Source: Amphiscolops sp. MND2022 (lineage: Eukaryota). Taken from it: 64,000 nucleotides of DNA. A program made the position numbers and the translations under genes. Positions 31,801 through 52,878 of the stretch are shown piece by piece. Every line of letters begins with the position of its first letter. The stretch's first letter is position 1. The notes beneath the pieces are model-generated. The model was given only the letters and a program-made list of their open reading frames with translations. It did not search any database and was not told the origin of the DNA. The DNA is taken from assembly GCA_964187785.1 (NCBI GenBank), contig OZ076409.1, forward strand, positions 76,818,001 through 76,882,000. Reading direction: 5' to 3'.

Positions 31801-32114
31801 CCCAGTACGACGATCTTTCCTTCGATCTTATTCCGGAGATTTTGATTTATTGCAAGAAATCAGTGTCTACACTGAAAAAGGGTGTAACGACCCGGCAATA
31901 GAATTATCATACGAATATGACTATTTTTAGAACACTTGATCGAAATTTTGAAATCTTGGAGTTTTTTCTATCTCAGTGAGATTCGATTTCGATCTTGGGA
32001 TAATGATACATCTTGGTACGATCTCAGCAATAATCTTGTTATGGGATCCATGGTTACCGAGATGTAGTAAGAGTTTGGCAAGATCTTGTCATGGCAGCCA
32101 AGATGCTATGCTAG

Positions 32115-32814
32115 TATAGCGGACAGTAAACAGGAAATGAATTTTTTAATACATGTGAGACTTCATACACGTTACATATACACATCTATATATTGAAAAA
32201 TATTAACAGCGTTGCTTAATATACATTGTAACAATTGTTGTGCACATTTTACTTTTTTTAAAATATTTTACAAACAATTATCCAGGCAGTTCCAGGCAGT
32301 GTGCATTTTAAAAAGCCTTGTGGTCGTTTCTAAAAATTTAGCTGCCTTGTAGTAATAAATATTTTGTTGAGTCTGATTCAGCTTCCCAATTGTTCAGCCG
32401 CCCCCTTATTTCAGCTGCCCCTTATTTAAAGCTGCTCTTATTATTTTATGCGCCCAATTCAGCTGCTCCTTTATTAACATTCATCAAAAGCCCCACTCTT
32501 ACCCAGTGCAGGATTAATTATTTATTCGTTTCTTGCACCTGCAGAAGTATCTTCAGAAACCGAAAACTATCACAGCCATAACATCATTCATCAAGCCAAA
32601 TGTAAGTTGCTGTTTGTTACTTAATAATTTTGGTCAGTAAATATCGTTCTTTAAAATTGAGTTTTCATATTCTTATAGACTTTTTTTCTTGTCCTTTTTT
32701 TTAGAAATATCCACTAGTCATTTTTAAAAACAAAATATATCCATTTACCCCAACAATCGCCCTGCGCATCGAAAGTTGAAACGAATTCAAATCTAGTAAA
32801 AAGCGATTGTTGAA
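32115..32814 (+). repeat. 5' LTR of element 1 (700 bp)
   Basis: Matches 44175-44874 with two substitutions seen (32721/44781 and 32812/44872). Contains a TCCAGGCAGT tandem, CAGCTG-CCCTTATT repeats (~32395-32475) and a TATTTAAA TATA-like box near 32424. Confidence 0.95.
32600..32607 (+). promoter_or_regulatory. Candidate major splice donor AT|GTAAGT in the LTR of element 1
   Basis: Consensus GTAAGT at 32602-32607, preceded by AT and downstream of the TATA-like box. Compatible with three AG|G acceptors (see findings). Confidence 0.65.
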
Positions 32815-32815: not shown

Positions 32816-32833
32816 TGGTGACAAGGGTGGGAT
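32816..32833 (+). promoter_or_regulatory. Primer-binding site of element 1 (Leu-type tRNA-like)
   Basis: TGGTGACAAGGGTGGGAT lies 1 nt after the LTR. TGG-T plus a GTGGG-AT T-arm complement fits a Leu-type (class II) tRNA 3' end. The exact isoacceptor is not determined. Confidence 0.8.
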
Positions 32834-33222: not shown

Positions 33223-33492
33223 ATGCCTTGTGCTCACAATACGCATTCTCACCTACCGTTGTACGTTTTTCCCCAACGACCGCTTCGACCATCAAGTCCT
33301 CCGCCCTCTTACAGCGAAACACGTGAAAGACCGATATTCACGCCCTGTTTTTTTAGTTTTCTACTCTTGATCCTCCGTTTTGCGCTTCTCTTGACCGTTT
33401 TAGCCCTTTGTGCGATGTCGTACGAAATCAACAAGATAAATATAACTTGTAAAGCACTTCAAACCCAAAGAGTGGACTATACGTCTCTGTAG
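33223..33492 (+). CDS. ORF A: 89-aa single-pass membrane protein with PPSY motif, in the leader of element 1
   Basis: ATG start, PSSPPPSY motif, hydrophobic FFSFLLLILRFALLLTVLALCAM helix, and an NIT sequon downstream of the helix. Confidence 0.45.
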   Translation: MPCAHNTHSHLPLYVFPQRPLRPSSPPPSYSETRERPIFTPCFFSFLLLILRFALLLTVLALCAMSYEINKINITCKALQTQRVDYTSL

Positions 33493-33502
33493 GAGCGGCC
33501 TA

Positions 33503-33901
33503 ATGTATACTTTTAGCATACCTGTTTCCGTTTTGTCAAACACACCGCCTCAAAACTTCGTTATTCCTTGCTACTTCTGCCAAGTGAAACTTTTCAAAAT
33601 TCCATTATCGCATCAACCAGAACGTCGTTTTACGGCACATGAACTGTCGATTCATTTGCGTCTTGAGGCTATCCACAATTGGCAACATCGAAACGTTTGT
33701 TCAACTTTCCCGTATGGTCGTGTTGATAACAATGCAAGTGTAAAAGCTTCCTGTGCGTCCTTTTTCCCTCAATTATCCAATATTTGGGCTTCTCATATTC
33801 AATTTCTAGCAATACACGTAACGAATCCATTCTTTTTGGTCTATCCCGACTGCAAACCACCTAGTCTCAATTTTGGTCCGCTGCGAATGGATCGCATGTG
33901 A
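33503..33901 (+). CDS. ORF B: 132-aa Cys/His-rich protein upstream of gag
   Basis: ATG start, CYFC...HELSIH...HNWQH...C, and an in-phase splice acceptor TCTCTGTAG|G at 33492/33493. Confidence 0.5.
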   Translation: MYTFSIPVSVLSNTPPQNFVIPCYFCQVKLFKIPLSHQPERRFTAHELSIHLRLEAIHNWQHRNVCSTFPYGRVDNNASVKASCASFFPQLSNIWASHIQFLAIHVTNPFFLVYPDCKPPSLNFGPLRMDRM

Positions 33902-33942
33902 AACGTTCTAGACCTAACGTAGACTTTAAGCGTTCAAATACA

Positions 33943-35163
33943 ATGAGCACTCAACCAAGCACCCCCACAACGGCCACCTCGACAGCGGTAACCAATACCA
34001 CTACAACCCCAGTTACTAGTGGTGGTGCAAGTAGCTCCCAAGCACCAGCACAAGCACCTACCGTGGGTTCTACAACTCCTAACACTAGTACAACCCCAAC
34101 AGCTTCCTTTTTCACTCTGCCTGGCGGTAGACAAAACCCAACAAGTGTTCCATACATAGCCCCGCTTCCGTCATGTCTGATGCCAGAGTCTTTCACAGGA
34201 AAAGGTGATTTCGAAGATTACCTGCAACAATTTAACACAGCAGCACTTCTCTCAGGCTGGTATTCGAACGCACACGATAACAGACCACATTATTTTGCGT
34301 TGCGATTGAGAGAAAATGCTTTGCATTTCTACACTACGTTGTCTCCATCACAACAAACTAACTTCGATATGCTCGTTGACGCGTTCCGCCAGAATTACAC
34401 AACTAATGGCGATATTCTGAAAGCAAGATTGAAAGCCGCGAAGCAGCAACCCAACCAAGATATTTCATCTTTCCTATGTGACGTTCGGACGCTGGCGCGT
34501 CGTGCATATCGGGATCATCCTGCTATGATTGATCCGGTAGTTCTGACGTGCTTCATTGAAGGGTTAAGCGACAAAACGCTTCGATGGGAGCTCCGAAAAG
34601 CCAAGCTAGCCACAGCGGATGATGCTTTGTCCTTGGCTATGGAGCTGAATTCGTTCCTGGAGATTGAGAACGGAAACCCCCAAGCCGCTCAAACAGTTAA
34701 CCGAGTTAGTACTTCTTCTGAAGCGGAGCCATCAGCGTCCAAAATTATGGCTGATTTTGTTCGATCATTACAAACTGAACTTCAGTCGTCAACGTATCGG
34801 TCCAATAATGATTTCCATCAACGAGGAGACACAAAATCATCAAACAGAAATGATCACTCGAGATCGCAGAGTAATGATTCCAATCGGAGTGGCCAGTCAG
34901 TACGATTTCAGTCGTCACAAGGACGCGAACGACCAAATAACGCAGGCAGATCTGACAAAACACAAAAACAACAGTATCGCCAAGATTCCCCCCATCCCAA
35001 GAAACAAGGCAACAATAACAACACGCAAAACAATCGGAAGCCGTGCGAGCGTTGCACACGCAAAAATCATACAACGAAGGAGTGCAAAGCTTGTTTCAAT
35101 TGTTTGAGAGTCGGTCATTTCCAGAATGAATGCAAGGCTCCCAAAAGGGAACATTTAAACTAG
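33943..35163 (+). CDS. gag: Gag of element 1 (capsid plus two CCHC zinc knuckles)
   Basis: ATG at 33943 in ACAATGA context, capsid motif PESFTGKGDFEDYLQQF...GW, and knuckles CERCTRKNHTTKEC and CFNCLRVGHFQNEC. Confidence 0.95.
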   Translation: MSTQPSTPTTATSTAVTNTTTTPVTSGGASSSQAPAQAPTVGSTTPNTSTTPTASFFTLPGGRQNPTSVPYIAPLPSCLMPESFTGKGDFEDYLQQFNTAALLSGWYSNAHDNRPHYFALRLRENALHFYTTLSPSQQTNFDMLVDAFRQNYTTNGDILKARLKAAKQQPNQDISSFLCDVRTLARRAYRDHPAMIDPVVLTCFIEGLSDKTLRWELRKAKLATADDALSLAMELNSFLEIENGNPQAAQTVNRVSTSSEAEPSASKIMADFVRSLQTELQSSTYRSNNDFHQRGDTKSSNRNDHSRSQSNDSNRSGQSVRFQSSQGRERPNNAGRSDKTQKQQYRQDSPHPKKQGNNNNTQNNRKPCERCTRKNHTTKECKACFNCLRVGHFQNECKAPKREHLN

Positions 35164-38100
35164 AAATGTCTACCCTAGCGGGTCACAGCGCAGACAAGAC
35201 CACAAACCGAGGCCCACAAATTCAGACTCTTAACTCTGTGGTGGATCACAGAAGTGTATTCGTCCAATTATCCATTTTTAATACGGTGATTGAGGCTGTG
35301 TGTGATAGTGGAGCAAGTGTGTCTTGCCTGAGTTCTGATGCATTTGGGAAATTGAAGAACGGGAAGAATTTAGAGCTAAAACCGTCAGACACGAAGCTTG
35401 TAGCAGCCAACAAACAACCTATAGTAACATGCGGCATTGTGCAACTACCTTTGCAAATCGGTCCGAGACATTACGAACATTCGTTTCACGTTCTGGAGCA
35501 AGCAGAAGCTGACTGTCTACTCGGCTTAGACTTCCTCAAAACTCATAAATGCGACCCGTTGTTTTCCCAAGATATTCTGCGTCTGGATGAAAAGACGACA
35601 GTCCCCCTGTATCATCGTCAGCTCACAGATGCTAAGACAACTGTGTTCAGGGTGGTGGTGTCCGAGACAGTTTCGGTACCACCACGACATACAATGATTG
35701 TGCCAGCGCACATCAAGGATTGGAAACGCCCATTGAATGAGGGTGTAGCAATTTTCGAGCCGCACGAACGGTTCGATGGCTCAAAAGAAGCAGTGGCACC
35801 AAGTATTTTGTTCAACTTTGCTGAGGAAAACATCCCGGTGACGATCGAAAATTCTGGAGAAGAGCCACTGATCTTGTATGAGAAAACAACTTTGGGTACT
35901 TCAGAAGCAATCCCTGATTTACCCATACAAAACGTTGTAACCGAAACAAAAAGCTTGAAGTCTAAAATAGACGAAAAGGACGAATCGTACGATTTGAAAA
36001 ATGTAGTGGATGGAGTTGATCCGGAAATTCCATTCAAAATAAAACAGAAATTCGCAGAACTTGTTTACGAATTCGAAGATGTGTTTTCGCAAAACCAATG
36101 GGACATTGGTCGTTGCGAAGCTACAACACACAAAATAAACGTATACCCCGGATCAAAGCCGATTAAAATTCCGAATCGCAGAATGCCCCTCCACTATAAA
36201 CAGGATCTCCAAGAGAAATTAGACGCGTTCCTGGACAAGAAGTTAATAGCTCCTTGTCACAGCCCTTACAGTGCACCCGCCATGCTAGTCCCGAAGAAAA
36301 ACGGAAAACTCCGCCTCGTCATTGACTACAGACAATTGAATAGTCAAACAATCAAGTCTTGTTGGCCAATCCCTTCGATTGAAGAAATTTTTGACACTCT
36401 AGATGGAAGTTCAGTCTTTTCCACTATAGACATGAGTTGGGGATTTTATCAGCTGCCCTTAGACGAATCAAGTCAAGATTATACTGCTTTCAGCACACCT
36501 TTTGGTTCCTTCAAATGGCTTGTAATGCCGATGGGACTCACAAACAGTCCACCGACGTTCCAAAATTTAATGGAAATCGTTTTGGCGAAACTTATCTGGA
36601 AAACAACAGTCCCCTACCTTGATGATTGTATCATCTTTGCCGCTTCCCCGGAGGAACACTTAGAACGAGTCAGGGAACTTCTAGGCAGATTTAGACAAGC
36701 CAACTTGAAAATAAACCCCCTAAAATGCGAGTTTTTCCGCACCAAAGTCCACTTCTTGGGCCATGTCATCAGCAAAGAAGGCCTTCAAGTTGATCCCACA
36801 AAAATTGCAGCCGTTAAAGAGTTTCCGGTCCCAATTAACCAGACCCAGGTGAAGTCATTCTTGGGCCTTTGTTCCTACTATAGACGTTACATCAAAAACT
36901 TCGCTGAAATCGCTCGTCCCTTGCATAAAGCGAGTGAAACCAACTCGCCTTTTAAGTGGACAACTGAGGCAGAGCAAGCGTTTGAAGATCTAAAAGCACG
37001 ACTCCTCACAACACCAATTTTAGCCTTTCCAACAATGGAAGATCCTTTCATCCTCTACACGGATGCCAGCCAACTAGCAATGGGAGCCGTTCTAGCCCAA
37101 GTACAAAATGGCCAGGAACGTGCTATTTGCTATGCATCAAAGGCATTCTCCAAATCCCAATCAAAGTACTCAGCGACGAAACGAGAACTTCTCGCAATGG
37201 TCCATTTCACTCGGTACTTCCGACATTACCTACTCGGTAGAAAATTCAAAATTGTCACAGACCACAGTGCACTTCGCTGGTTACACAATTTCAAGGACCC
37301 CGACGGTCTCATTGCACGTTGGATTGAAAAACTAGCAGCTTTTGATTACGAAGTGCAACATAGACCAGGCAAATCCATCGGACATGCCGACAGTCTGTCC
37401 AGAATACCAACTGAATCCGTCCAATTAACGCAAGAATGCCGAACAGGAGTCCCAGGTGCAACAAAGACGAAGAATTGCAACAATGACGAGGAATGGCCCA
37501 ACGCACAATCTAACTACAGTATTCACCTATTGCCTAGAGATACAGCATCAATACCACTCCAAGCTATCATTGAACTCAAGGAAAAAGCTAATAATCACAG
37601 CAAAGTTAAAACCGGCGAACTTCTCGAACACGAGCAACCACAAGAAAAGCCTCTACAAGAAGAACTAGTCATTACAGAAACAGGCATTGTCAAGTATCGC
37701 GAGGTGAAGGGCGATTTGTTCAGTTCTTCGGAGTCCCTAGCTCACTGTATCTCAGCTGATTTTAAAATGAGTTCTGGAATAGCCCGATCATTCAAAAGGA
37801 AGTTCCCAGCACAGTATCCAGAGGACTTATCAAAGCAAACTGTGCCACTTTGGGTACAACCATTACCTGGTGACGGCCGTTTCCTGTATCACTTGCTGAC
37901 TAAGGAACGTTACTACCAAAAGCCAACATATACTTCACTTCGAGCTTCTCTGGAACACATGCGTAGCCATGCTGAAACGAACGATGTCCTAAAGATTAGT
38001 ATGCCTCAAATAGGCTGTGGAAATGATAAACTTGACTGGGATTTGGTTCGCAGACTCATCCGAGAAGTCTTTGACGGATCCAATGTATGTATAACTATTT

Positions 38101-40070
38101 ATTTGCCTCCATCAATTTCACTTGAGAGCGAAGGCCCACCCGTAGAAACCGCTAAAGATAATGAACCAGTGCATGCGGACATTGATGTCCGCAATGCTCA
38201 AGATGAGGACGAGGCCCTGAAAATCGTAAAAGAATGGGTTCGCAGGGGTCGTGTGCCGCGGAATAACGACCTACAAGGAAGTCCCGAGTTAGCATGGAAG
38301 CTGTACAATCAATTCCACAGTTTATATCTGGCCAATGACGTCCTTTGTCGACGGTATGAACCAGTTGGAAGTGAACTTCCGTACCTACAGCAAATTGTTC
38401 CCCGTACCTTGGTAGAACATATCCTAACAAACTTGCACTCTTCCGCTACCAGTGGACATCTAGGTTTAGCCAAGGTGATGGAGAAAGTTCGACAGCGTTT
38501 TTGGTGGCCTGGTTTCAAAGAGGATATCAAGCTTTTCATAAAACGTTGTTCCGAATGTCAGCGACGCTCGGATCCTCCCAAAACACATCGTCATTCCCTT
38601 GTAGAGTGGAAAGCTAGTTATCCCTTTCACCACATTGGAATCGATTTCATGGGCCCATTGCCGGCCTCGAATGGAAACAAAGTAATTCTGTTGATCGGGG
38701 ATCATTTCACAAAATGGTATGAAGCAATTCCCTTGCCAGATCAGCAAGCTACAACAACGGCTACCGCTCTTATCGAACATTGGATCTGTCGATTTGGTTG
38801 CCCCTACAGCATACATAGTGATCAAGGACGTAATTTTGAGTCCAAGTTGTTCCAGACGCTCATGACAAGCCTTCACATTGACAAAACAAGAACAACTGCT
38901 TTTAGGCCCCAGTCTAATGCAGTGATCGAGCGAATGAATCGAACAATCCAGAACATGCTAGCAAAATGCGTAAACGCTGAACAAAGTAACTGGTCCCAAC
39001 AGTTACCCTACGTAATGATGGCCTACCGGTCATCTGTACATGAATCAACCGGATATTCGCCTCAATTTCTTGTTCATGGGCGAGAAATTTCCTTGCCAAT
39101 CGATTTGATGCACCCTGCACCTGAAGCCGAAAAACCAATGTCGCCTACGGATTTTGTATACAATCGAAAATTGGCCTTCCAAAGAGCTTTCGAACTAGTG
39201 CGAGCCAACATTAATAAAAACCAAAAACGTCGCAACGCCATTTACAACGAGAAGATCCATGGTCCTACCTACGAACAGGGACAGAAAGTGTTGCTCCACA
39301 CACCAGTGGTCCCAGTTGGCCAAACAACCAAGTTCCACAACCCATGGCGTGGTCCATATGTGATACTTGACTGTTTCAATGAGGTCACATACAAGATAAG
39401 AGAATTGTCTACGTCCAAAGAGCTGATCGTTCACTACGATAGGTTGAAACCTTTTTGCGAAAAACCAGCTACTTCAAATGTGCCTACTCGAAATACTAGC
39501 TTAACCCAGCCCACAAAACCAGTTCACTCCAATGTCCCAACACGGAATAACGACTTGAACACCACACCACCTGAAACCTCGCATCGATGCTGCATGCATT
39601 TTCAACAGCCACCACTGCAGCCTATGAATCTCCACAGCCCTGCTCACCTAAACCACCAGACTACTCCAACGCCACAATCAACTAGCCACAATGCTCAGTC
39701 ACCGACCCAAACCCGAACTCCCGCTTTCCTCTCCGGTAATCAGCATTCCCAATCTTTTCAATCTCCTGGCGTTCAGACGATGGCCACTCCCGCAACTCCT
39801 TCAGTCGACAACCCTAGTTATCGTCAAGCACCAGCATCCCATTCACCTTTGTCAAACGAATCCCGAAACATCGTTGAAAACGCTGCTGTTCAGTTTCGAG
39901 ATATGATAAACAGACCATACAATCTCCGCGCAAGTACACGCACACAGCGATTGGCGGAACCCCTGTGTAATTCCTCAATACCTTCTGAACTAACCGATTT
40001 CAACTCGCCGCCACTGCACAGCATGCCACATTCCACCAAACGTTCCAAAAACTATACAAAAAGGAAATAA
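35130..40070 (+). CDS. pol: Pol of element 1: protease, RT, RNase H, macrodomain, integrase with GPY/F, S/P/T-rich tail
   Basis: CDSGASVS (protease), YLDD (RT), YTDAS (RNase H), HSSATSGH...CSEC plus IDF/SDQG/IER (integrase), and PWRGPY. No stops over 1646 codons. Confidence 0.97.
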   Translation: MQGSQKGTFKLEMSTLAGHSADKTTNRGPQIQTLNSVVDHRSVFVQLSIFNTVIEAVCDSGASVSCLSSDAFGKLKNGKNLELKPSDTKLVAANKQPIVTCGIVQLPLQIGPRHYEHSFHVLEQAEADCLLGLDFLKTHKCDPLFSQDILRLDEKTTVPLYHRQLTDAKTTVFRVVVSETVSVPPRHTMIVPAHIKDWKRPLNEGVAIFEPHERFDGSKEAVAPSILFNFAEENIPVTIENSGEEPLILYEKTTLGTSEAIPDLPIQNVVTETKSLKSKIDEKDESYDLKNVVDGVDPEIPFKIKQKFAELVYEFEDVFSQNQWDIGRCEATTHKINVYPGSKPIKIPNRRMPLHYKQDLQEKLDAFLDKKLIAPCHSPYSAPAMLVPKKNGKLRLVIDYRQLNSQTIKSCWPIPSIEEIFDTLDGSSVFSTIDMSWGFYQLPLDESSQDYTAFSTPFGSFKWLVMPMGLTNSPPTFQNLMEIVLAKLIWKTTVPYLDDCIIFAASPEEHLERVRELLGRFRQANLKINPLKCEFFRTKVHFLGHVISKEGLQVDPTKIAAVKEFPVPINQTQVKSFLGLCSYYRRYIKNFAEIARPLHKASETNSPFKWTTEAEQAFEDLKARLLTTPILAFPTMEDPFILYTDASQLAMGAVLAQVQNGQERAICYASKAFSKSQSKYSATKRELLAMVHFTRYFRHYLLGRKFKIVTDHSALRWLHNFKDPDGLIARWIEKLAAFDYEVQHRPGKSIGHADSLSRIPTESVQLTQECRTGVPGATKTKNCNNDEEWPNAQSNYSIHLLPRDTASIPLQAIIELKEKANNHSKVKTGELLEHEQPQEKPLQEELVITETGIVKYREVKGDLFSSSESLAHCISADFKMSSGIARSFKRKFPAQYPEDLSKQTVPLWVQPLPGDGRFLYHLLTKERYYQKPTYTSLRASLEHMRSHAETNDVLKISMPQIGCGNDKLDWDLVRRLIREVFDGSNVCITIYLPPSISLESEGPPVETAKDNEPVHADIDVRNAQDEDEALKIVKEWVRRGRVPRNNDLQGSPELAWKLYNQFHSLYLANDVLCRRYEPVGSELPYLQQIVPRTLVEHILTNLHSSATSGHLGLAKVMEKVRQRFWWPGFKEDIKLFIKRCSECQRRSDPPKTHRHSLVEWKASYPFHHIGIDFMGPLPASNGNKVILLIGDHFTKWYEAIPLPDQQATTTATALIEHWICRFGCPYSIHSDQGRNFESKLFQTLMTSLHIDKTRTTAFRPQSNAVIERMNRTIQNMLAKCVNAEQSNWSQQLPYVMMAYRSSVHESTGYSPQFLVHGREISLPIDLMHPAPEAEKPMSPTDFVYNRKLAFQRAFELVRANINKNQKRRNAIYNEKIHGPTYEQGQKVLLHTPVVPVGQTTKFHNPWRGPYVILDCFNEVTYKIRELSTSKELIVHYDRLKPFCEKPATSNVPTRNTSLTQPTKPVHSNVPTRNNDLNTTPPETSHRCCMHFQQPPLQPMNLHSPAHLNHQTTPTPQSTSHNAQSPTQTRTPAFLSGNQHSQSFQSPGVQTMATPATPSVDNPSYRQAPASHSPLSNESRNIVENAAVQFRDMINRPYNLRASTRTQRLAEPLCNSSIPSELTDFNSPPLHSMPHSTKRSKNYTKRK
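35154..35160 (+). promoter_or_regulatory. -1 ribosomal frameshift heptamer U_UUA_AAC (gag to pol), element 1
   Basis: CAT TTA AAC TAG ends gag, and pol is in the -1 frame. Confidence 0.85.
37689..38103 (+). other. TARG1/OARD1-type macrodomain within Pol of element 1
   Basis: VKGDLF..SLAHCISADFKMSSGIA..FKRKF...YHLLTKERYYQKPTY..LRASLE.M..H......ISMPQIGCGNDKLDW..V..LIREVF follows the TARG1 sequence motif by motif. Confidence 0.92.
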
Positions 40071-40150
40071 CTTCAAATAGTTGCATTTTATTTCTCTCTC
40101 CAGGTCATTTCCCATCACCAATGGCCTAACAAGGCTCCTCTGTTTTTCAG

Positions 40151-42497
40151 GATTTCCTACTTTCCAAACTCTCAACATTTCTCGTTTCTCTTTCTGTTCG
40201 TCCGTTGGTCGGTCCTGATCTTTGCGGATGTGCAGTTCACAACACACCTCAACGATGACCTGGAAAAACCCGTATTCAAGAAAGGTGCAGCGTTTGTGTT
40301 CAAATACCAAGCTGTTACCTCGGAGAGCGAAAGCAAAGTCCGCGTGTTCTCTCCCTTCCCCAAGATGCCTCTAATCAACATTACCAATGCCATTAACATG
40401 ATCAATGCCTTCCAGACAGCCCCTCGAAGCATCGGAGGTATGTACATCAATACAAACTGCAAGTTTACAGACGTTAATGACACCTATGACCTCCTCCTGC
40501 AACAACTTGTGACAAGAGTCAATTTCCTGCAAACAGAGTTGGCTGCAGCTCAACAAGAGGAAGACACTCTTCTGGAAGTTGTGAATTCTTTCATTCCACC
40601 AGCTGTTAGACAATCTGATGACATCGCACGACCACGTCGAGCAATTGCCGCTATTGCTGCAATCGCAGCAGGTGCCGGAATGGTCTTGGGTGAACCAATC
40701 AAAGACGCCGCTTGTAGTGCGCTTTCTATATTTAACCTCTGTCACACCAATGAAGATCTGAGTCGCGACGTGGAACGCATAATGAGCACACAGCAAGAAA
40801 TTGTTGATACACTGCAGCGTGTTCAAACTCGAAACGACAAGAATTTCTTCCTTCTAGGAAACGAGATTAAACAGACCCAGGAAAGTGTCCAGAAACTAAA
40901 AGAAAGTGTCGGTCTCCGCTTCCAACAAATGGAGTTTTACCTAGTTAATGCTACTCGCTACTTGGCTGCGACTAGCCTTGAGTGTGACAGAGTGATTATT
41001 CGTCACCTTAGCCTTCAGCAATTCTTGCGAAATTACGTCTATCAGCTAGGGACACTTTACACTCATCTCAAGTCGTACCGTGCAGCGTTTTACGCTTACC
41101 GCATTTCGCTCTACTCCACCATTTCCTCGTTAGCTAGTGGCTACATCACACCTCAGTTTCTTCTGCCTCAACAAGTGGCGCAAATTGTCAAAGACTTAGC
41201 AGATGACGAAGTAAAGCGGGGCACCAAACTGTCCCCAGCTATTCGACCTGGTTTTGAGGCAATATACTATGAGATACAATTAGTACTCGAAGTAACTTTG
41301 ATACCACGTGGTATATCTGTCATTCTTGGGATCCCAATGAATTCAAAGTCGTCGACGTTTGACATTTACCATGCCACGCCTCTGTATCAGCCCAACAATG
41401 ACCAGAAGACTGCGTCGCTCTTCAATTTTGCGAACCCTTTTTTGGCCGTATCTACTGACAATAGTAGATTTGCAGAACTCGGTGCTAATACGCTGCAGCA
41501 ATGTTCGGGTAACAATCGTATCAAATTATGTAGAAAAGGCTTCTCGACAACAACCGATGAAACTCTTCTTTGCTTAGGATCCTTGTTCTATAACTACGAT
41601 GTTCCCGCCTTACGCAATTGCGAAGTCCGCGCAGTACTTTTACCCGACGCTCCTCAGGCTTTTTATTTGGCGGATGGAATGTACCACGTCATATCGCGGT
41701 CTCCCACTCTCAAATTCAAAAACGATAGCCAAATTGACGGCCTTTCTATCTCTACTATCACCTGTCAGGCGTGTGTCATACGCCCTAGCTGTTCGAGTAC
41801 ACTGTCTTTCAACCAGGGTGAACTGGTTCTTCACCCTGACATGGATTTTTGTGAGACCCGACCGGAGCCTTTTCTTGCGTCGATTGAGCTGACACCGTCT
41901 TTGAATCAAGTCTTCGCGCATGTACCCGCCATTGGTAGCGCCGAATTTCAGGCATATTCTACTAGTGAAGCTCGTCAGTCAGTTCTTGGCAGTCTACGAA
42001 TGGAACTAGCCGAACTACCTGACGTCCAACACATGTCGCCGGAAACTCTAGATCAACTGACAGAGCCAATCGCTAAGTATTATTCTTCGATCTCGCCGGC
42101 CACATCAGCAGCTTTACAGTCATATTTACCCACCCGTACTGCTTTTTTACTTTCGTCATTGTCCATTACAATGTCTATTTTAACATTTTCTATAAGTTTT
42201 ACTTTGTTTAGACGTCGTTGGCAGCGTCTTTTTACCAATCCTCAACGCTTTTTCCGGGCTACTTCCGGTAGATTCATTAATATAGTCGAATCAATTACCG
42301 CGGAGTATGATTTGACCAATTCTCCATTTTTGTATTTGACGGACGCTGAATTCCGCGCACTGATTTTGCTGGCTCGCGAAACCATTCGTCAAGCTGAACC
42401 GAAACCATCTAATTACACTGCACCCAACGCCCCTACACTTCCACCACGTGTTTATCTTATTATTAGTGCGCCTACTTATGAGTCTACTTCGACATGA
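40151..42497 (+). CDS. env: Env (class I fusion-protein architecture) of element 1; start probably created by splicing
   Basis: Signal-like FSFLFLFVRWSVLIFA, furin site RPRR (40629-40640) followed by fusion-peptide-like AIAAIAAIAAGAGMVLG, a heptad repeat, a Cys-rich ectodomain, and TM AFLLSSLSITMSILTFSISFTLF followed by RRRW. Confidence 0.9.
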
Positions 42498-42559
42498 TTT
42501 AATTGCTTAGCACATTTCTGTCTCACTGTCAATTTCAGCTTCTTTATCAACTACTTAGG

Positions 42560-42955
42560 ATTTCCCTTCCTAGATGCTTTCCTACGCAGCTAGTGCCTGT
42601 TCTACACGTTTCCGTGTTACTTACGTTCCTCTAGGTTGCCTTTCCTTCCTAGTTGCTTTACTACGCAGCTAGTGCCTGTTCTACACGTTTCCGTGTTACT
42701 TACGTTCCTCTAGGTTGCCTTTCCTTCCTAGTTGCTTTACTACGCAGCTAGTGCCTGTTTTACACGTTTCCGTGTTCCGTTACTTTCCCTTAGGTTGTCT
42801 TTTCCTTCCTAGTTGCTTCACTACGCAACTAGCGCCTGTATTGATACACGTTTCCGTGGTGAATCTCTTTTCGCTAAGCTGTCTTTTTCTCCTAGTTGCT
42901 TCGCTACGCAACTAGTGCCTCACAACACACGTTTCCGTGTCCGCAATTAAGTTTT
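42560..42955 (+). repeat. Tandem array of five ~79-83 bp units between env and the J-domain ORF
   Basis: CTACGCA(G/A)CTAG cores at 42582, 42661, 42740, 42821 and 42904. Confidence 0.92.
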
Positions 42956-42988
42956 TTCCTAATTGTTTAAACAATTAGTGTCTAGCAG

Positions 42989-44134
42989 ATGCGTTTCCGC
43001 ATCCTAAGTAGGATTTTCGTACAAAGTGTAATCGGTGCAATCAGTTTTTTTTGTTGTTTCAGGTTCCAGTTTCCAGCAGCTCCAGTTCCAGCGCCCTTCC
43101 TCCTCAGCAGCGGCCGCGTGCAGCCTCTGGCAGAGGGATATGTAGTCCGCTTGTTGGACAAAGACGATTATCGTATCAAGAGAATAAACCCCGCTACACA
43201 AACTGTTGTGCTACAAAAAATTAATTCAAGTAATCGTTGCTTTGCTCGACCAGCTACGGAAATCTGGCTTCCTCCTCCAAGCAGTAACAGCCTGAGCGTG
43301 GAAGTGGACTGCCCTCCCCCTCCAGCAATCTGTGATTGCTCGCCAGTACCCCCTAAATTAATAGTGGACACCTGCGATGTAGCAGTGGATGCGTCCCTCG
43401 ACGCTGACGACAGCATGGAACTCTTAGTATCAGAGTTTTCTTCGGTTGGCGAACTCAATAAGGGTTTTGAAGAAGCCCGTGCAGCAGCTAATAAGGCTCG
43501 CATCGAGTGTGAGCATACGTTCGACCTCCTTTGCGAGGAAATGACTCTTCGGAAGGCAAAGGAAAAGGAAATTCATGAAGCAAAAATCGAGCTCGCTGGT
43601 TTACAAACCAACATTGCTTCTCAAGTCGTCGCCCTCGCCGAAAAAGACAGTGAAATAGCCGCCCTGAAGAAGCGCCTCAGTGCCCTCAGCGACGAAAACA
43701 GCTCTTTGCTGCAACACAGTCTCCAGCAAAGCGAAGAACTCTCTAACCTTAAACTAGCCGCCAACAGGGTTTCAGATGCCCATCTAACCACTGACATGCT
43801 AATCTATCAACTTTCCACATATACTCCTGAACTCGATTTCGCAGATGAGAACATATTCTTTGATATACTTGGCCTGCCACCCACAGCCGATGTCGAAAAG
43901 ATCAATCGTCATGCTAGACATCTTTTAAGACTCGTACACCCCGACAAGAACCCTTCCATCCCAGCCGAAGTGTCCCAACTGGTCCCCTGCCTTAAGGAAG
44001 CGAAAAACGTCCTCACGGATCCCCGGCTCAACAAAGTATACCGGTGTTGCGGTATGACAGGTGTTCGCCGGGCCCGTCGTAAATTACGGACCTGCATGGA
44101 TTGTGACTCCCACATGTCGGACTGGTTCGAGTAA
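42989..44134 (+). CDS. Accessory ORF of element 1: coiled coil plus C-terminal J-domain (DnaJ/Hsp40-type, HPD intact)
   Basis: NIFFDILGLPPTADVEKINRHARHLLRLVHPDKNP...LKEAKNVLTDP (~43850-44053, HPD at 43937-43945) and a heptad-rich region at aa ~155-255. The stop lies 28 bp before the PPT. Confidence 0.88.
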   Translation: MRFRILSRIFVQSVIGAISFFCCFRFQFPAAPVPAPFLLSSGRVQPLAEGYVVRLLDKDDYRIKRINPATQTVVLQKINSSNRCFARPATEIWLPPPSSNSLSVEVDCPPPPAICDCSPVPPKLIVDTCDVAVDASLDADDSMELLVSEFSSVGELNKGFEEARAAANKARIECEHTFDLLCEEMTLRKAKEKEIHEAKIELAGLQTNIASQVVALAEKDSEIAALKKRLSALSDENSSLLQHSLQQSEELSNLKLAANRVSDAHLTTDMLIYQLSTYTPELDFADENIFFDILGLPPTADVEKINRHARHLLRLVHPDKNPSIPAEVSQLVPCLKEAKNVLTDPRLNKVYRCCGMTGVRRARRKLRTCMDCDSHMSDWFE

Positions 44135-44162
44135 TTTGGCTGGCGGGGACGCAGCCTTTCAC

Positions 44163-44174
44163 GGGGGAGGGTAG
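44163..44174 (+). promoter_or_regulatory. Polypurine tract of element 1
   Basis: GGGGGAGGGTAG immediately precedes the 3' LTR. Confidence 0.85.
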
Positions 44175-44874
44175 TATAGCGGACAGTAAACAGGAAATGA
44201 ATTTTTTAATACATGTGAGACTTCATACACGTTACATATACACATCTATATATTGAAAAATATTAACAGCGTTGCTTAATATACATTGTAACAATTGTTG
44301 TGCACATTTTACTTTTTTTAAAATATTTTACAAACAATTATCCAGGCAGTTCCAGGCAGTGTGCATTTTAAAAAGCCTTGTGGTCGTTTCTAAAAATTTA
44401 GCTGCCTTGTAGTAATAAATATTTTGTTGAGTCTGATTCAGCTTCCCAATTGTTCAGCCGCCCCCTTATTTCAGCTGCCCCTTATTTAAAGCTGCTCTTA
44501 TTATTTTATGCGCCCAATTCAGCTGCTCCTTTATTAACATTCATCAAAAGCCCCACTCTTACCCAGTGCAGGATTAATTATTTATTCGTTTCTTGCACCT
44601 GCAGAAGTATCTTCAGAAACCGAAAACTATCACAGCCATAACATCATTCATCAAGCCAAATGTAAGTTGCTGTTTGTTACTTAATAATTTTGGTCAGTAA
44701 ATATCGTTCTTTAAAATTGAGTTTTCATATTCTTATAGACTTTTTTTCTTGTCCTTTTTTTTAGAAATATCCACTAGTCACTTTTAAAAACAAAATATAT
44801 CCATTTACCCCAACAATCGCCCTGCGCATCGAAAGTTGAAACGAATTCAAATCTAGTAAAAAGCGATTGTTAAA
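44175..44874 (+). repeat. 3' LTR of element 1
   Basis: About 99.7% identical to the 5' LTR and followed by the CTAG TSD. Confidence 0.95.
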
Positions 44875-46299
44875 CTAGCAAGAGGGTCAACACGGGTCGT
44901 TTTTTTCTGAGCTGAAACCCGTTTCTAAATCGCCTTCTTTCGGTCGTCTTGCACTTTTTACCTCGAGAATAATGACATCACTTGTGCCGAGGCAGTGTTT
45001 TCGCCCAACATGTTTGGTAAAAGCTTGGCTTCGTGTTGAGCCACGTCCACTTCGATATCGTTCTCTCGCAGTTTCCTCTGTATTTAATTGCTTTTGGCGT
45101 GACTATATCTTATATTCTTTTTTTTTTAACGCAAGAATCGTGATTCGTTGAAAATTTCCCACCTGCCGTTTGAAAACCCCAACTGGCCCAGTTTTACTAT
45201 GTCTCATCATCGAGCCACTAGCGAGGCAGTAACCGGTGGTTTATAGAATCTTTCGATGGTATCTTTGGTGCGAGCTTCCGTCTTGATTGGACAATTTTTT
45301 TTTGCATTGCCCGCTTGATTATTAGTGAATTGGCGTGCTCGTTGTGGGGCTTTGTTTTTGTGTTCAGCTTTAGTTTATTATTTGATTGCACCGGTTCAGC
45401 TCCCGTAATACGCTGTTATTGGTTGTTCAAATTAGATTCTGCCACATTAGCATTGCGCGTTAACCCTAACTGACCCGGGAGTTTTTGCAAATTTTCAAAA
45501 AAAAAATTGATTAAAAATTCAAATCTTCAATATTCCCACAACTACGCGTGCCAGAGAAACGAACTATAACGCGTTTGAAAGGTCTGGTATTGGGCTTTCA
45601 TTTTGATTAGATGAGCCCCTTTGTGCGGGGGCTTATAGTAACAACAGAATATTATTGGGATTTATTGCGTAAGAACTTGTTGTGCAAGTGTATGGGGTTA
45701 GTTTTTACTATGGGTCAAGATTTTTTTGAGAAAACTGGATTTCGCCAAAAAGAGAAATTTAGAAACAAATAACCAATTTTTGTGCAAAAAACTCATTTTT
45801 CCCAGTTTTGGAGACATATTCACTTTTCCTAATGCTTGTGCCAATCAAATCAACCAAGGAATTGTTGAGAAAAAAGCTGTGCTAGAGAATATGGGCTACT
45901 GGCAGAACGGATTAGAAATTGAAAAAAAAGGTATGTTGCCATAAAGTAACACTGGGTTGATTGGAACTAGGTTTCAATTTTTTACAGCAGTAAATTGTGT
46001 TGACCAATTTTCATTGTCCTAGATATCGTTCGATTGCGTTCCGGTTATTGGCTTCCGGGTCATTAATTAATTTAAGCAAAGGTGTCTTGCAGCAATTTGT
46101 TTGATACTCTTTTCAGGCAGTTTATTTAATGAAGTGTTTTAAACATTGTCTTTTTTGCTGTGCCTTATACGAACGTACGTGCAAAGCCTATCCGTTTTTC
46201 AGCAGTTGTCCGGGTTTTCCTGCCAAACTGTGGCCTTTAGGTTTTTTGACTGGCGTCCGTCGTAAACATTTTCAGTCGGCGCTTCATGAAGTGAAACGC

Positions 46300-47815: not shown

Positions 47816-49182
47816 TCTTTATTCCAAATTTGTCGTCCAGCTATTCAGAAGGTTTACTTTCTGATGTTGAGTTTTTCTCCTGGAACAGAGTTGGTATGCC
47901 TTTATGGCTGTAAATGCCTTCTAAAAAATTACGGAAGTTGTGAGTTCTACTCTTGTGACAGCGAATATGTTTATGTTCTTTGCACATTCTATTTAGGAAC
48001 TTTCACATTCCATTTTTATCATTTTTCAGATTCCACGGATTTCAACGGATCATTTTTTTCGCAGTAGTTATTGTTTTAGTTGACGAGACAAACTTCGGTC
48101 GCAATGCCCGGATTTGGTCAAAATGGTTTTCTTTTTCCTACAAATTTTTTCCTTTAGAAATGAGTTCATTCTAATTTTTTTCAGCAATCTGATTGTTTGG
48201 ACTTTTTCTGGATATGTTATTTCAAGTCTTGGTTTTCGGATTCGTTTTTGAATCGAACTTTATTTGCTTAACGTTATCACTCCTCGCAAACCATAGCTTT
48301 TTTACCCAGAGGATTGGTGTCTTTCGCTGTTATTGGTAATTCCACTTATTCCACTTGGAGTTATTCTTTTCGTTGCAACATTCCTTCTTCCGGTAGACAT
48401 TTCTGCCCAAAATGTAGCTTTCGCAGCTGAAGGATCAATATATGTTTCTGATATGGAATATGGGAAGAAATGAAAACAATGAAAACGAAAACCAGTTGAA
48501 AACAACATGATATCGCTTCTGTACATTGTCTGTTGTTCAACTCTTGTGAAACTAGCTTTAATTTCAATGTAGTACACCCGGGTTTACAGGCTGTGGCTTT
48601 TCATTTATGATTCATGAGTTTGCCATGCCGAGAATTATTCCATCATGGCAAGGTGTCCATGGTTCATGGATGAAAAGCCATGATGGCATGGATGATCATA
48701 GATGAAAGCGCATAAAGTTAACCATAAACAGTCCTAAACCTTCGATTTTTTTTGCATTCGTGATGTCCTTATATTCAACAAAAATAGAGAATTGACAATG
48801 AACTGAATTAAGTAATTCCATGTCTGAAAAAGCCGATATGTCGGTTGTACCAAACTTTTTAAAAAATATATAATCAAAACGTTATGAATCTGGTTCAGCA
48901 AGTTGACTTTAAAACACCTTTTCAACGTTTCACAGATTTTTTTATTTCTGTAGAAAAGTTCTACAGGCATGAAAATTAGGACGCATTGTATTCCTTTTCT
49001 CCGCGCGCGTCGCGGCAGCGGCATTGTATTATTTAGTCACAAAGCGTAGCACAGTACTTGCATAAAGCACGTGACGAATACCGAGCATAAAAGTTGAACA
49101 ATATATGAATACAATCACAGCATACTCACAGAGGACGACTTAAAATTAATAAAAGGAACATACTAACGATCGGCAACGTATA

Positions 49183-50034
49183 CTATTTTTCCTTCAATCC
49201 CCTAACCGCCATACAATGATATTCCCCTCGCGACTCCAGATATCTACAAGCTAAATAGATACTCCCGTGTGTAGGTCCTTTATGACAGCCGCGGTACACA
49301 ATCCACTCGCGTGACTGCTCGAAGTATTCGTAGATCGTGACTCCAAGCTCGCGAGCGATGACGCGTGTGTCGGTCCGTGAGATGAAGTATGTGTCCCCAG
49401 GACCGTCGGTGGGAAGTTCGTCCGCGTATTCATCGTACATGTAAGCAAAGCGGCCCTTTCTAATCTTCCGCACCCAGTCCTGAATGGCCACCGCAGCTTT
49501 GATACTCCCGGTCAAAATAACGCTTAAAGTAGTGCAGACACAATTATGAGGACTCGGGCAATTAACTAATTTCGGTCTAAATTTTGAAGCATCAATTTCC
49601 TCGTGATTGCTCGTTTTAAAATGCTTCACCCATTTGATGCCGATCTTTCTGCATAAAAATTTTCTCTTCTTTTTGGAACAATGAACCATAGGACCACTCC
49701 GTCGAACGGCGATACGGGAGTCAGCGCAAAAGGAACAATTAGCTACAATGTCTGCACATGCAAGTCTCAAATAAGGAACGATAAAAATATCACGGGCACG
49801 AAGGTAAAGATCATTTGCAGGGGGGTGGCTCTCTCTTTCATGTAAACTCCGTAAGTGATCCTCGATCTCATCAGAGAGTAAAATGCGGCGGCCCCCACAA
49901 AATAATCGCCCGTCAATAAATTGGCACTGCTTAGCTTTCCGTCTGAGGGATCTTCGGTCATTCAGGGAAAATGTAGGCGGGAAAGTTTTTGAAGTAAAAT
50001 ACAAAACGAACGCCAAGAAGAGTTCTTTATCCAT
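49183..50034 (-). CDS. Antisense ORF inside the LTR: integrase/GIN1-type HHCC zinc finger fused to an OTU-like cysteine-protease domain
   Basis: 283 aa from ATG at 50034. N-half DRRSLRRKAKQCQFIDGRLF..RRILL..E....L..LH....H...CSFC. C-half LCRKIGI...PHNCVCTTLSVILTGS...IARELGVTIY..Y....W..Y...IYL...HCMAV. Confidence 0.65.
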   Translation of the reverse strand: MDKELFLAFVLYFTSKTFPPTFSLNDRRSLRRKAKQCQFIDGRLFCGGRRILLSDEIEDHLRSLHERESHPPANDLYLRARDIFIVPYLRLACADIVANCSFCADSRIAVRRSGPMVHCSKKKRKFLCRKIGIKWVKHFKTSNHEEIDASKFRPKLVNCPSPHNCVCTTLSVILTGSIKAAVAIQDWVRKIRKGRFAYMYDEYADELPTDGPGDTYFISRTDTRVIARELGVTIYEYFEQSREWIVYRGCHKGPTHGSIYLACRYLESRGEYHCMAVRGLKEK

Positions 50035-50046
50035 GATGCAAGTTTT

Positions 50047-50228
50047 CACGTGAAATAGATATCAATTGTTTGTTGTAAGGTGAATGGAATAAACTGACTG
50101 CGTACGCACGTGAGTTGCGCACTATGCTAGCGCTCGCTACGGAAAGGCCGCTACAACGCTGCGGGGGGGATTATTACGTCATCAATACAGGGAACCTGCT
50201 CCGCTAGCCGCAGCAACTTGTGACGTCA
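50047..50228. promoter_or_regulatory. CRE/E-box cluster upstream of the antisense ORF
   Basis: CACGTG (50047-50052, 50107-50112), TTACGTCA (50174-50181) and TGACGTCA (50221-50228). Confidence 0.4.
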
Positions 50229-50272
50229 CAGCAGAGGGAAAATAGGACATCAGATTTTAGTATTTTTGGGAC

Positions 50273-50612
50273 CTGACCACTTTTTTCCTCGCTAGCCCTT
50301 TTACCTTAAAAATGGTCGGATTTAGATGAAATTTGGCACGAATATAATAGAGGTCATGTGCAAACTACATGCAAAATTTCAGCTTGCTACGATTACCGCA
50401 ACCCTAGTTTTTTCAACTCGGAAGTGGGCTATGTCAAAAAGGTTCTCTGCAACCCGACCACTTTTTTCCGCGCTAGCACTCTTACCTGAAAACTTGTCCG
50501 ATTTGGATCAAAATTTGCACAATTATACTACTGATCAATGACTACCTACATGCAAAAATCCAGATTGCTAAAACCACTCCGAACCCCCGTTTTCGAACCC
50601 GGAAGTGGGTGA
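50273..50612 (+). repeat. Diverged ~181-bp tandem duplication within the LTR of element 2
   Basis: Units start GACCACTTTTTTCC.CGCTAGC (~50273, ~50454) and both end near GGAAGTGGG. Confidence 0.75.
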
Positions 50613-52377
50613 ATTGACAACAACCGGAAGTTCTAGAAATAACCCTTAAACCAAGTTCCAGGGCGCACCATTATCGCCCAAACGGAATGTAAACGTCTCT
50701 CAACTAAGTATGGGTCATTTCTAAATAGTTTTTTGGTCGTTTGACCCTAAATAAGCTCAAACTATCGAAAATCCGGATACCCTAAAACCCAAAACTAAAA
50801 AAAAATCATCCAAACTTGGTTAATTCAACAAGGGGGGCATCATGAAGCTTATTTTTACCACCCTATTAGTTGTTGGGGCATTGGAAATGTCCGGGGAGAT
50901 CCAAATTGATCCTGGAAACGGGAATCGGTATATTCGAGATTCGAGAAAATAACCCTAACCCTAAATTTGGAAATGACCCATATGGCCGTTGCAAATAGTG
51001 GTGTTGTATATCGATCGAAACGGCGTCGTGTCACGAGGCCAATTAAAGTGCCCATTTTTCAAATTTCAACCAATTTGAACCATTTCGCCTTTTCTAGGGT
51101 TTTTCATGAGAAAATCGGGTTCTACATATATTGAGACTAGTGATCGGATTTTTTTTCAAACTTCGAATGACCTAAAATAGCATGATGCTTATATCAGCGC
51201 GACTACGAAATTCTCCAAGCAGCGTTACGCGAAACCTCATTAATTATGCAGAGCGCATTACGCTCCGCCAGCTGCAGATAGAGTATTAGCAAAGCAAGTC
51301 CCTTTTCAGTGCGGCGAATGCTCTTTCAAGTGGAACACTTTTGTTTATTGCAATTATATAGCCTCGAGGAACAATTTATCTATTGCTTCTGTATTGAGCA
51401 TATTTAATGACGTTGAGCTATTGAACAACGGCGGGAAGCTGACAGCTTTATTGAAATAATAGACTGCGAGGCGCCGAGGCGACTCTGCCAGCTGCACTAA
51501 TGAGGCCGCGTGTGTTCTTTACTGTTCCACTTGAAAGCGCAAGCGTTAAGATGAAAAATAGATTAAATACGATAACAAACATAATATCTAATAAAGCCGA
51601 GCAGTTCATGCTGATCCAGATAAGCGAAAACCGAAGAAAATAATACAAATTTTGCAGAGGAGGAAAAACAAAAAAAAACCGACGCCCCCGGACGCAATAA
51701 AATAAATAAAACGAAACCGGCTCGTCGGAAACGAAAGAGGAGAGGAGAGACAGACCGTGTAGAGAATAGTTGTGTGCTCAGAGAAGAGAAAATAGTGAAA
51801 AAAAGAAAAACATTGAGAATCCGGGCCCCTCATACAGAAAATAACACATACATTTTTTGCCTGATTGTCTAATTAGTGAGCTGAGAAACACGTTGAACCC
51901 AACCCCATTCAATTAACGTTGTTTGTATTGATTACCCGGTGCCGCTCGTACGTACCTGTATCTATTTGGAAGCATTTTGTGTTTGTGTGTTCGAGTAGTT
52001 TCTTTCCATATTTCTCACCCGTATCTATTTGAAGCACTATTGTTATTCGTGGGTGCACTGTGTTTAAATATAAAGAAACCCCGCTTATTTGAAGTCTTGT
52101 TTGCTGAATATTCCCGCTATTCAGGGAAAAGTAGTGTTTTCTTTCGCTTTTCGAAAAGAATAATTGATTGTTGTGTGGCGTTCTTTTGCCAAACAAGAGC
52201 CGAGGCCCTGATAGAGACAGGTCAAACTCAGAAAAAAGGGAAAAACTGATTGAACGTTGAATAACTGGAACCTTTTCTGCCCGTTGCGGCCTGCTACTTT
52301 TCGGTATAAAAAACTCTTGTGGAACACCTAGCTCTCGATTCGCCTCGTCGAGAGTGTCGCGACTCAAATAGGTGTTG

Positions 52378-52659
52378 ATGGTCGGTCGCAGTCACAAAAA
52401 AAAGAGCCGGGCCGACAACTTTTCTACAGTGGCGCTCCTGGGTGGGCCACCAACGCAGCAGCAACCAGTTATTAGCGTCATTATTTCTCAACTTTCCGAG
52501 ATAGTTTGTGAGCTTGTTATACTTGTTTTGTTAGTTACTTTTCTGATAACGATTACGATTGCTTTTACCGCCTGGAACAGTGTTAGAGATTCCATTGAAT
52601 TCCCGTTTAGATCATTCAATTCTACCCTAGTTTACCCGAGTTTTGGATTTATCCATTGA
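52378..52659 (+). CDS. Leader uORF of element 2: 93-aa basic N-terminus plus single hydrophobic helix
   Basis: ATG at 52378, HKKKSR, IVCELVILVLLVTFLITITIAFTAW, and an NST sequon. It spans the LTR end and the PBS. Confidence 0.35.
   Translation: MVGRSHKKKSRADNFSTVALLGGPPTQQQPVISVIISQLSEIVCELVILVLLVTFLITITIAFTAWNSVRDSIEFPFRSFNSTLVYPSFGFIH
52430..52447 (+). promoter_or_regulatory. Primer-binding site of element 2 (primer tRNA not assignable)
   Basis: TGGCGCTCCTGGGTGGGC lies 1 nt after the LTR-terminal CA. Confidence 0.7.
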
Positions 52660-52878
52660 AATTGGATCCCGAAGACGTCTATTTTGAATTTGCATTTCCT
52701 TGCTTGGGAATTGTTTATTGCCCGTTAACGATTGGATCAGCCATCATTCTTTTGTGGTTTGCTTACTTGAGATTTGTTATCTGGCTCATTCTTGAACTGC
52801 CTTACGACCGGGAGACAATTGCTTTCGTTATCGACGTTATTGGTCCAGAGTTAGCAGACAGCTGAGCAGAGCAACGAG

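Follow-up and report, generated by a model that had tools for sequence, protein, structure and literature searches.

The window analysed here, the whole 64,000-nt stretch of DNA, contains at positions 32115-44874 a young gag-pol-env Ty3/gypsy element whose fourth gene, ORF4, is a 381-codon ORF (42989-44134). The two LTRs of this element were identical at 698/700 positions (2 substitutions between the 5′ and 3′ LTR), and the Ty3/gypsy hallmarks were all present: LTRs, primer-binding site, polypurine tract, target duplication and the protease-RT-RNase H-integrase order. The features are as follows (a slash marks a splice boundary):

32111..32114 (+), 5′ target-site duplication CTAG; 4-bp duplications were found at other copies too
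32115..32814 (+), 5′ LTR, 700 bp, with 2 substitutions relative to the 3′ LTR
32600..32607 (+), predicted splice donor AT/GTAAGT within the LTR, exon ending AT, from motif conservation
32816..32832 (+), primer-binding site, starting TGG
33943..35163 (+), gag, with a Retrotrans_gag match and a zinc knuckle under the cut-off
35130..40070 (+), pol, protease-RT-RNase H-(macro-like insert)-integrase, in another frame and overlapping the end of gag
40151..42497 (+), env exon, starting after a predicted acceptor AG/G at 40150/40151
42565..43003 (+), candidate array of small RNA hairpins between env and ORF4, with 4.4 copies of a 79-nt repeat
43041..43063 (+), pyrimidine tract and predicted ORF4 splice acceptor TTTCAG/G
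43063..44134 (+), ORF4 coding exon, 357 codons including the predicted splice-made Met
43091..43279 (+), predicted SH3-like (KOW/Tudor-type) beta barrel, a common fold matched at a best Z of 7.1
43403..43771 (+), long helix, likely coiled coil, of family-dependent length
43856..44041 (+), J-domain, with HPD at 43937-43945
44045..44104 (+), Cys tail (C/H)C-G ... CxxC, a possible zinc site in which alignment A2 has three invariant Cys
44163..44171 (+), polypurine tract, 28 nt 3′ of the ORF4 stop
44175..44874 (+), 3′ LTR, followed by the duplication CTAG at 44875-44878

By sequence, the env ORF encodes a signal-peptide-like stretch, a basic cleavage site followed by a hydrophobic peptide, and a C-terminal hydrophobic helix; its only Pfam match was a weak one to torovirus spike (E 0.011). 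Pol and env share a frame in the window's family, and stop read-through from pol into env was considered and rejected because this frame relation is not conserved in other families. Pol residues ~850-990 (window ~37680-38100) form a macro-domain-like insert between RNase H and integrase, which matched Pfam Macro under the cut-off (E 0.0051); PF01661 is precomputed on the relatives P0176 and P0180. LTRs of the clade start with TATA or TGT and finish with TTAAA or TTATA instead of TG...CA, and the primer-binding site of the clade comes in two versions, each present in several families. A GGACGC motif between the ORF4 stop and the polypurine tract (window 44141-44171) is shared with L079, a remnant in the host genome (G000:C3) from a very distant family.

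A second gag-pol-env element, of another clade, occupies window positions 48949-64000, and its pol contains a seemingly similar macro-like stretch. This element also has a fourth ORF (62784-63344, 186 aa, own ATG), unrelated to ORF4 and without a Pfam match; it is a distant relative of fourth ORFs in two further env families (L099:9511-10431 and L107:9480-10328; 22% over 104 aa, E 7e-6). Judged by these sequences, a second, undescribed accessory family appears to occupy the same position behind env. In or just behind the 5′ LTR of the second element lies a 283-aa antisense ORF (49183-50034, minus strand) with a weak integrase zinc-binding (H2C2) match (E 0.00088, below the cut-off).

The original prediction, made from the DNA sequence, gave ORF4 a possible small beta-barrel N-terminus, a ~100-aa coiled coil, a C-terminal J-domain with an intact HPD and a final CxxC, placed it 28 nt from the polypurine tract, and proposed a Pfam DnaJ search. 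This layout held up. ORF4 residues 290-351 scored 40 bits with Pfam DnaJ, for which the cut-off is 27.8 (E 4.3e-10), with HPD at residues 317-319 and CxxC (CMDC) at residues 369-372, and the stop lies exactly 28 nt before 44163-44171. Among 11 other family members scanned, 6 scored above the DnaJ cut-off and the remaining 5 matched beneath it. When a profile of ten homologues was searched against solved structures, J-domains ranked first (DNAJB8, DNAJC5; E ~1e-7). The AlphaFold2 model of ORF4 (13-sequence input, mean pLDDT 80.9, pTM 0.34; mutual domain orientations not informative) comprised a beta domain (pLDDT 85-91), a low-confidence Pro-rich linker, a single helix of 123 residues (ORF 139-261) that is likely a coiled coil, and a four-helix J-domain with HPD between helices II and III. 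The fold of the J-domain model matched as well: the top Foldseek PDB rows were J-domains (e.g. 5NRO_B, rmsd 1.8 over 66 columns), with no row at E ≤ 0.001, and in BFVD viral DnaJ proteins came first, including giant-virus and baculovirus ones.

Modelled alone, the N-terminal domain was predicted to be an SH3-like barrel that resembled Spt5/NusG KOW and Tudor domains alike, and chromo domains too, at Z ≤7.1, a level classed as common by the tool. The fold gives no function. The barrel gave no Pfam family match below E 0.03 in 9 members and no usable match in the ESM Atlas; its net charge, 0 to +4, is only mildly basic. ESM Atlas matches of whole ORF4 to bacterial hypothetical proteins (0.77-0.78) were rejected, as was HTLV-1 capsid, which came up in a PDB sequence search with the barrel profile (E 0.14), because the capsid domain is helical and the ORF4 barrel is all-beta. 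DnaJ was the only Pfam-passing domain of ORF4. The protein has no class A/B G/F region or C-terminal domains, and its J-domain is C-terminal and followed by a 30-residue Cys tail, which are class C features. Behind helix IV comes a motif similar to the 'YD..G' extension of class A/B proteins or DNAJC5. An Arg-rich tail was present in families A and B only and was not conserved in families D and E. Alignment with seven host J-domain pieces allowed no J-domain donor to be named.

The ORF start at 42989 on which the original prediction was based fared less well. This ATG is in frame in only 4/11 copies of family A, the window's family, because the length of a T-run varies; it sits in a hairpin stem (42988-43003), upstream of a predicted splice acceptor that is conserved across families, and most copies contain no ATG near the frame start. 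The ATG at 42989 is probably not the start of ORF4, and the first 25 codons of the ORF are likely intronic. Use of this ATG with its hydrophobic N-terminus as a signal peptide was rejected, as the acceptor is downstream and the frame is not kept. Conservation of ORF4 begins at a T-rich tract ending in AG and followed by GT (boundary 43062/43063). An AG/GT acceptor in the same phase was present in 27/28 loci where it was locatable (of the 31 loci surveyed, 3 were not located and one was rearranged), and also in one further family. Within the LTRs, the donor motif ATGT[AT]AGT occurred once per LTR, 195-243 nt before the LTR end, in 6/6 LTRs tested from 5 families; the chance of such a motif is 2-6% per LTR, and the LTRs otherwise look unrelated between families. 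The motif was not found in an older H-family LTR. Joining the donor AT to the acceptor G would form an ATG in frame with ORF4.

The env acceptors showed a related pattern (n = 22). In 12 a G comes next and no ATG precedes the signal-like stretch, in 6 an A comes next and env brings its own ATG within a few codons, and the remaining 4 show both. This covariation of acceptor base and ATG is hard to explain without a splice. The env start of gypsy is made by splicing. From the conserved signals we infer, and consider very probable, that a single LTR donor ending in AT would be spliced to the acceptor of env or to that of ORF4, with G as the first base after both, and that the shortest RNA would encode ORF4. 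The predicted product, which leaves off the intronic codons, has 357 residues and neither signal peptide nor membrane helix.

A search of the host genome (G000, 1.07 billion bases, probably of an animal) returned at least 139 ORF4 matches, from 100% down to 27% identity; some loci are split into pieces in this count. Thirty ORF4 loci, picked to span the identity range, were examined. Upstream of ORF4 and on the same strand, 28/30 had env homology and 26/30 also the clade's pol; an LTR pair was present at 22/30. With the window included, a single open frame of >300 codons spanned the ORF4 region in 27/31 loci. The position of ORF4 behind env is fixed in at least six families, among which ORF4 identity ranges from 29 to 100%. 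The lowest identities to the window element were ~50-55% for pol, 53-58% for env and 29-34% for ORF4; ORF4 thus diverges much faster than gag, pol or env (~30% vs 50-60%). A reverse search with env yielded ten loci of the clade (env ≥42%) without a listed ORF4 match nearby, and in 8/8 of these that were examined a decayed ORF4 lay behind env. A further distant family, known from a remnant, had the same order of env end, spacer, acceptor, ORF4 and polypurine tract.

In RT and integrase trees (1 and 3 of 20 rows removed because of stops or short cover; RT tree built by a quick method; midpoint root serving for drawing only), ORF4-bearing elements formed one fully supported group against the other sampled env-bearing elements. 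The env-bearing elements outside this clade, namely six families and the second element of the window, have an unrelated fourth ORF or none. The ORF4 tree recovered the same families and the same D+E pairing as the RT tree, with weak deeper branches.

Outside the host-genome search, we found 11 ORF4 relatives in a 90% library and 146 in a 50% library (E ≤1e-10). Some of these are the host's own copies. The best G000 matches of P0011, P0009 and P0077 were only 50%, 47% and 65% identical, respectively, and some ORF4 relatives, these three among them, therefore likely come from genomes other than G000. A metagenome contig, L119, carries a 46% identical ORF4 relative with the same acceptor (AG/G). 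Among the best 150 library hits, the barrel was present in 67, and 6 lacked a match to the barrel as well as one of 25 residues beyond the J-domain. The library hits included no recognisable cellular protein that has the complete ORF4 architecture, nor, among the best 150, any combination of barrel, coiled coil and C-terminal J-domain outside the ORF4 family. Pol relatives in the library were 65-100% identical at the closest, and named ones ≤47%. P0160, an ORF4 relative, and P0171, an 83%-identical pol relative, each have a longest listed contig of 12,273 bases, about one element length, and are perhaps parts of the same element in another genome. Two loci from a scan of viral contigs matched in little beyond the J-domain region, had no gag, pol or env, and were not accepted as relatives.

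We examined selection on ORF4 by comparing natural copies (Nei-Gojobori). In four informative pairs, dN/dS came to 0.16 and 0.17 (family A) and to 0.18 and 0.12 (family E). The ratio was low across barrel, linker, coil and J-domain (J-domain 0.14, 0.17 and 0.31 where estimable), and every informative domain ratio was <0.6, which gives no indication of positive selection. In two very close pairs the ratio was 0.81 and 0.29, from 14 changes each, as expected of post-insertion decay, and two further pairs with a frameshifted copy were uninformative. Between families, ORF4 dS is saturated, yet the frame stays open. HPD was kept in 22/25 copies with varied codons, the exceptions being one QPD, one HLN and one truncated copy. 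ORF4 is under purifying selection. This bears on the idea that ORF4 is a neutral capture of a host J-domain fragment, for which we found no support. With dN/dS of 0.12-0.18, open frames at most loci, a fixed position in at least six families and conserved splice signals, we regard this idea as refuted and its probability as close to nil. The original prediction of a J-domain gene dedicated to a Gypsy-type element is borne out by this conservation and selection, and the survey of related elements that it had proposed found ORF4 in sister copies and across the families, rather than as a one-off.

Comparison of the window element with locus L020 (a copy in G000:C6) revealed an abrupt change along ORF4. 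The barrel had 0 synonymous changes, whereas the J-domain was saturated (37/48 synonymous sites; window 43856-44134), and the two elements have different LTR starts. This indicates that recombination has exchanged the 3′ J/tail module among sub-lineages. Tandem env-ORF4 or J-domain pieces (2-3 copies) were present at the decayed loci L049-L050, L089 and G000:C12:47298629-47302981.

The host genome encodes cytosolic EEVD-type Hsp70s and a BiP; its cytosolic Hsc70 maps to the region G000:C3:51834170-51835987. Removal of the intronic codons leaves ORF4 without a signal or membrane segment, so it would meet Hsc70 rather than BiP. When ORF4 residues 280-381 were modelled together with host Hsc70, ATP and Mg, the complex scored 0.61 compared to 0.06 for the best control, on a scale whose mark was reached by 51/78 solved and 2/108 mismatched pairs. 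Contacts agreed ≥88% between runs, and the partner pLDDT was ≥73. HPD and helices II/III touched the interdomain linker, subdomain IIA and the substrate-binding domain of Hsc70, which is the canonical site. The score may reflect memory of solved J-domain/Hsp70 pairs such as 5NRO, and it speaks for compatibility only. On the strength of the model, ORF4 likely recruits host Hsp70.

Several contact positions of ORF4 depart from those of the seven host J-domains. In most families the Y25 position is A/V/I, and the F47 position is V/I followed by a conserved Pro in helix III; Y25 and F47 are named Hsp70 contacts (PMC13012618). Helix II has 1-4 basic residues in ORF4 families compared to 2-5 in the seven host J-domains, and the K26 equivalent is basic in most ORF4 families. 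The lost Y25/F47 equivalents, the Pro in helix III, the weak helix II charge in most families and the five members scoring under the Pfam cut-off would fit a J-domain that serves as a decoy or tether, binding Hsp70 with little stimulation, or one re-purposed as a scaffold for the Cys tail. We consider this improbable, since HPD is retained despite saturated synonymous divergence, the model docks canonically, and the residues that contact DnaK are not all conserved among functional J proteins (PMC13254874). A real, HPD-dependent Hsp70 co-chaperone action of ORF4 seems to us probable.

The 565-nt spacer between env and ORF4, with its 79-nt repeat, folds well below shuffled sequences (z -5.0). 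The array of the window comprises five hairpins with a G-UNYC-C loop and four 24-nt hairpins of a second type. The hairpin common to spacers of different families has a stem of ≥5 pairs with a G-C pair closing a UNYC loop. In one copy per family from 8 families, we counted 18 such hairpins in 3,208 nt of spacer compared to 2 in 75,234 nt elsewhere, a motif that was defined after viewing these spacers. Loci that were not used for motif definition also have the hairpin before ORF4, namely 5/8 extra env loci and L119, which carries two. Families B, F and G have no UNYC hairpin (3/8); B shares the second, longer hairpin type with A. Seven loci of another env clade contained 2 scattered matches in 112 kb.

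Among 37 distinct near-perfect hairpins, stem positions 2-5 each occurred with several pair types, both sides having changed. Single stem mismatches were G-U on the plus strand in 9 cases, on the minus strand in 1 case and other in 11. The 9:1 wobble bias and the covarying stems favour reading the hairpins as plus-strand RNA structure; the alternative that they are minus-strand GNRA loops is disfavoured by the loop variants and by the same bias. An Rfam search of the element gave one match only, far under the gathering score. Genomic and env RNA would keep the array, and splicing would remove it from ORF4 RNA. Its connection to ORF4 is one of position only, and it could be a packaging, splicing or host-export signal independent of ORF4.

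A precedent for an accessory protein of this kind is CERV of the C. elegans Ty3/gypsy element Cer1, an oligomeric, Cys-rich protein made from spliced mRNA and needed for genomic RNA export (PMC10309623). Both CERV and HIV Rev resemble ORF4 as accessory, oligomerising proteins from a spliced subgenomic RNA, all of which is predicted for ORF4, and in these systems, as by prediction in the ORF4 element, the unspliced transcripts contain structured RNA (PMC10309623). The Cys-rich motif of CERV is comparable to the ORF4 Cys tail. CERV is set apart by its description, with G and M domains and no J-domain, and an export function has been shown for CERV, whereas for ORF4 it is one that we infer only (PMC10309623).

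In the explanation we favour, the long helix would oligomerise ORF4, and the SH3-like barrel, the Cys tail or both would choose the target. ORF4 would bind the hairpin array directly or via a host factor, as with the Rev-response element, and would use Hsc70 to remodel the RNP, allowing unspliced RNA to avoid splicing and to be exported or packaged. We prefer the element's own RNP as the client because the element, with its strong donor and two acceptors, nevertheless needs to export unspliced RNA, because the regulator would come from the shortest RNA while the array marks the other RNAs, and because CERV offers a precedent. The whole chain, in which ORF4 is a Rev/CERV-like, Hsc70-using regulator of the intron-retaining RNP, is a plausible proposal that we would put somewhat below an even chance.

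The original prediction had suggested that ORF4 might recruit Hsp70 for capsid assembly or uncoating, or interfere with small-RNA loading. The predicted splice-made start and the hairpin array in the predicted intron somewhat favour a regulator acting on the element's own RNA over these uses. If ORF4 were instead a co-chaperone for the element's own proteins, Hsc70 would assemble or uncoat Gag capsids, in an auxilin-like manner, or mature Pol, and the hairpins would be an unrelated cis signal. The same J-domain, selection and model evidence would serve this explanation, the long coiled coil could display a pair of J-domains on a lattice, and J-domains of RNA viruses have been proposed to help polyprotein folding or virion assembly (10.1101/2022.02.15.480533). 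We nevertheless believe it rather unlikely: the other env-bearing elements of G000, in six families and the window's second element, transpose without ORF4, ORF4 diverges much faster than the proteins it would serve, and the predicted separate spliced RNA would uncouple its amount from that of Gag.

The fast divergence of ORF4, typical of conflict genes, also suits a different role, that of a host antagonist like polyomavirus T antigen or phage Rki (PMC13254874), in which the barrel would pick a host complex acting in silencing, small-RNA loading, transcription or heat-shock control and Hsc70 would dismantle it. The look-alikes of the barrel include Tudor, chromo and Spt5/NusG KOW domains, and the swapping of the 3′ J/tail module between sub-lineages would fit such a role as well. 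However, neither a sign of positive selection on ORF4 nor a conserved set of aromatic residues forming a methyl-reader-type cage in the barrel was found (only Y and F are invariant), and the barrel fold match is at the common level. We judge host antagonism to be unlikely. Returning to the own-RNA regulator, its fullest version is a 'complex' errantivirus with a chaperone-based Rev, in which the LTR exon would give two-thirds of the start codon to both env and the J-domain regulator, the regulator would bind the array, and Hsc70 would remodel the RNP; we offer this version tentatively, as about one chance in three or slightly better.

ORF4 can be set beside several known systems. J-domains of polyomavirus T antigen and phage Rki have been shown to co-opt host Hsp70 (PMC13254874, PMC3486835), and J-domains occur within polyproteins of 11 RNA-virus families (10.1101/2022.02.15.480533). 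These proteins, together with those of giant viruses and baculoviruses, belong to virus-like agents with a J-domain, none of them a retroelement; ORF4 differs in being a stand-alone gene whose C-terminal J-domain follows an SH3-like barrel and a coiled coil. Among the extra ORFs known in Ty3/gypsy elements are the GDSL and DEDDy ORF3s of rotifers (PMC5408684) and sORF1/sORF2 of MDG1 (PMC11952523), which are, like ORF4, captured or novel accessory ORFs of gypsy-type elements. These ORFs replace env or precede gag, whereas ORF4 is added behind an intact env. These two papers report no chaperone domain, and DnaJ and chaperone have 0 occurrences in PMC5408684.

The 'ancient errantiviruses' of metazoans share with the ORF4 element the gag-pol-env order, LTRs, multiple copies and recent activity (PMC13524379). 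The text of that survey contains no mention of DnaJ, J-domain, ORF4 or splicing, and its 7 supplements none of DnaJ, J-domain or ORF4. Springer, a Drosophila errantivirus, resembles the ORF4 element in making env from a spliced RNA with a GTAAGT donor near the 5′ end. The Springer donor is 43 nt downstream of the LTR, whereas that of the ORF4 element is inside the LTR, has two predicted acceptors and would supply the AT of the start codon (PMC13097621). In a large survey of J-proteins (PMC10410713), 'retro' and 'transpos' are absent from the main text. Searches of the open literature turned up no J-domain gene in any retrovirus or LTR element. ORF4 is a real, selected and apparently undescribed accessory gene.

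ORF4 has been kept through the deep divergence of the whole clade, which suggests that the predicted control of Hsp70 is a real advantage to these elements, and it provides a direct handle on how retroelements co-opt the chaperone network. An invertebrate-type gypsy element would here have the anatomy of a complex retrovirus, with predicted alternative splicing, a regulatory gene and a structured cis element. If the proposal is true, a chaperone-based Rev would be a novel means by which a retroelement controls splicing or export, and ORF4 would be the first retroelement-encoded Hsp70 co-chaperone.
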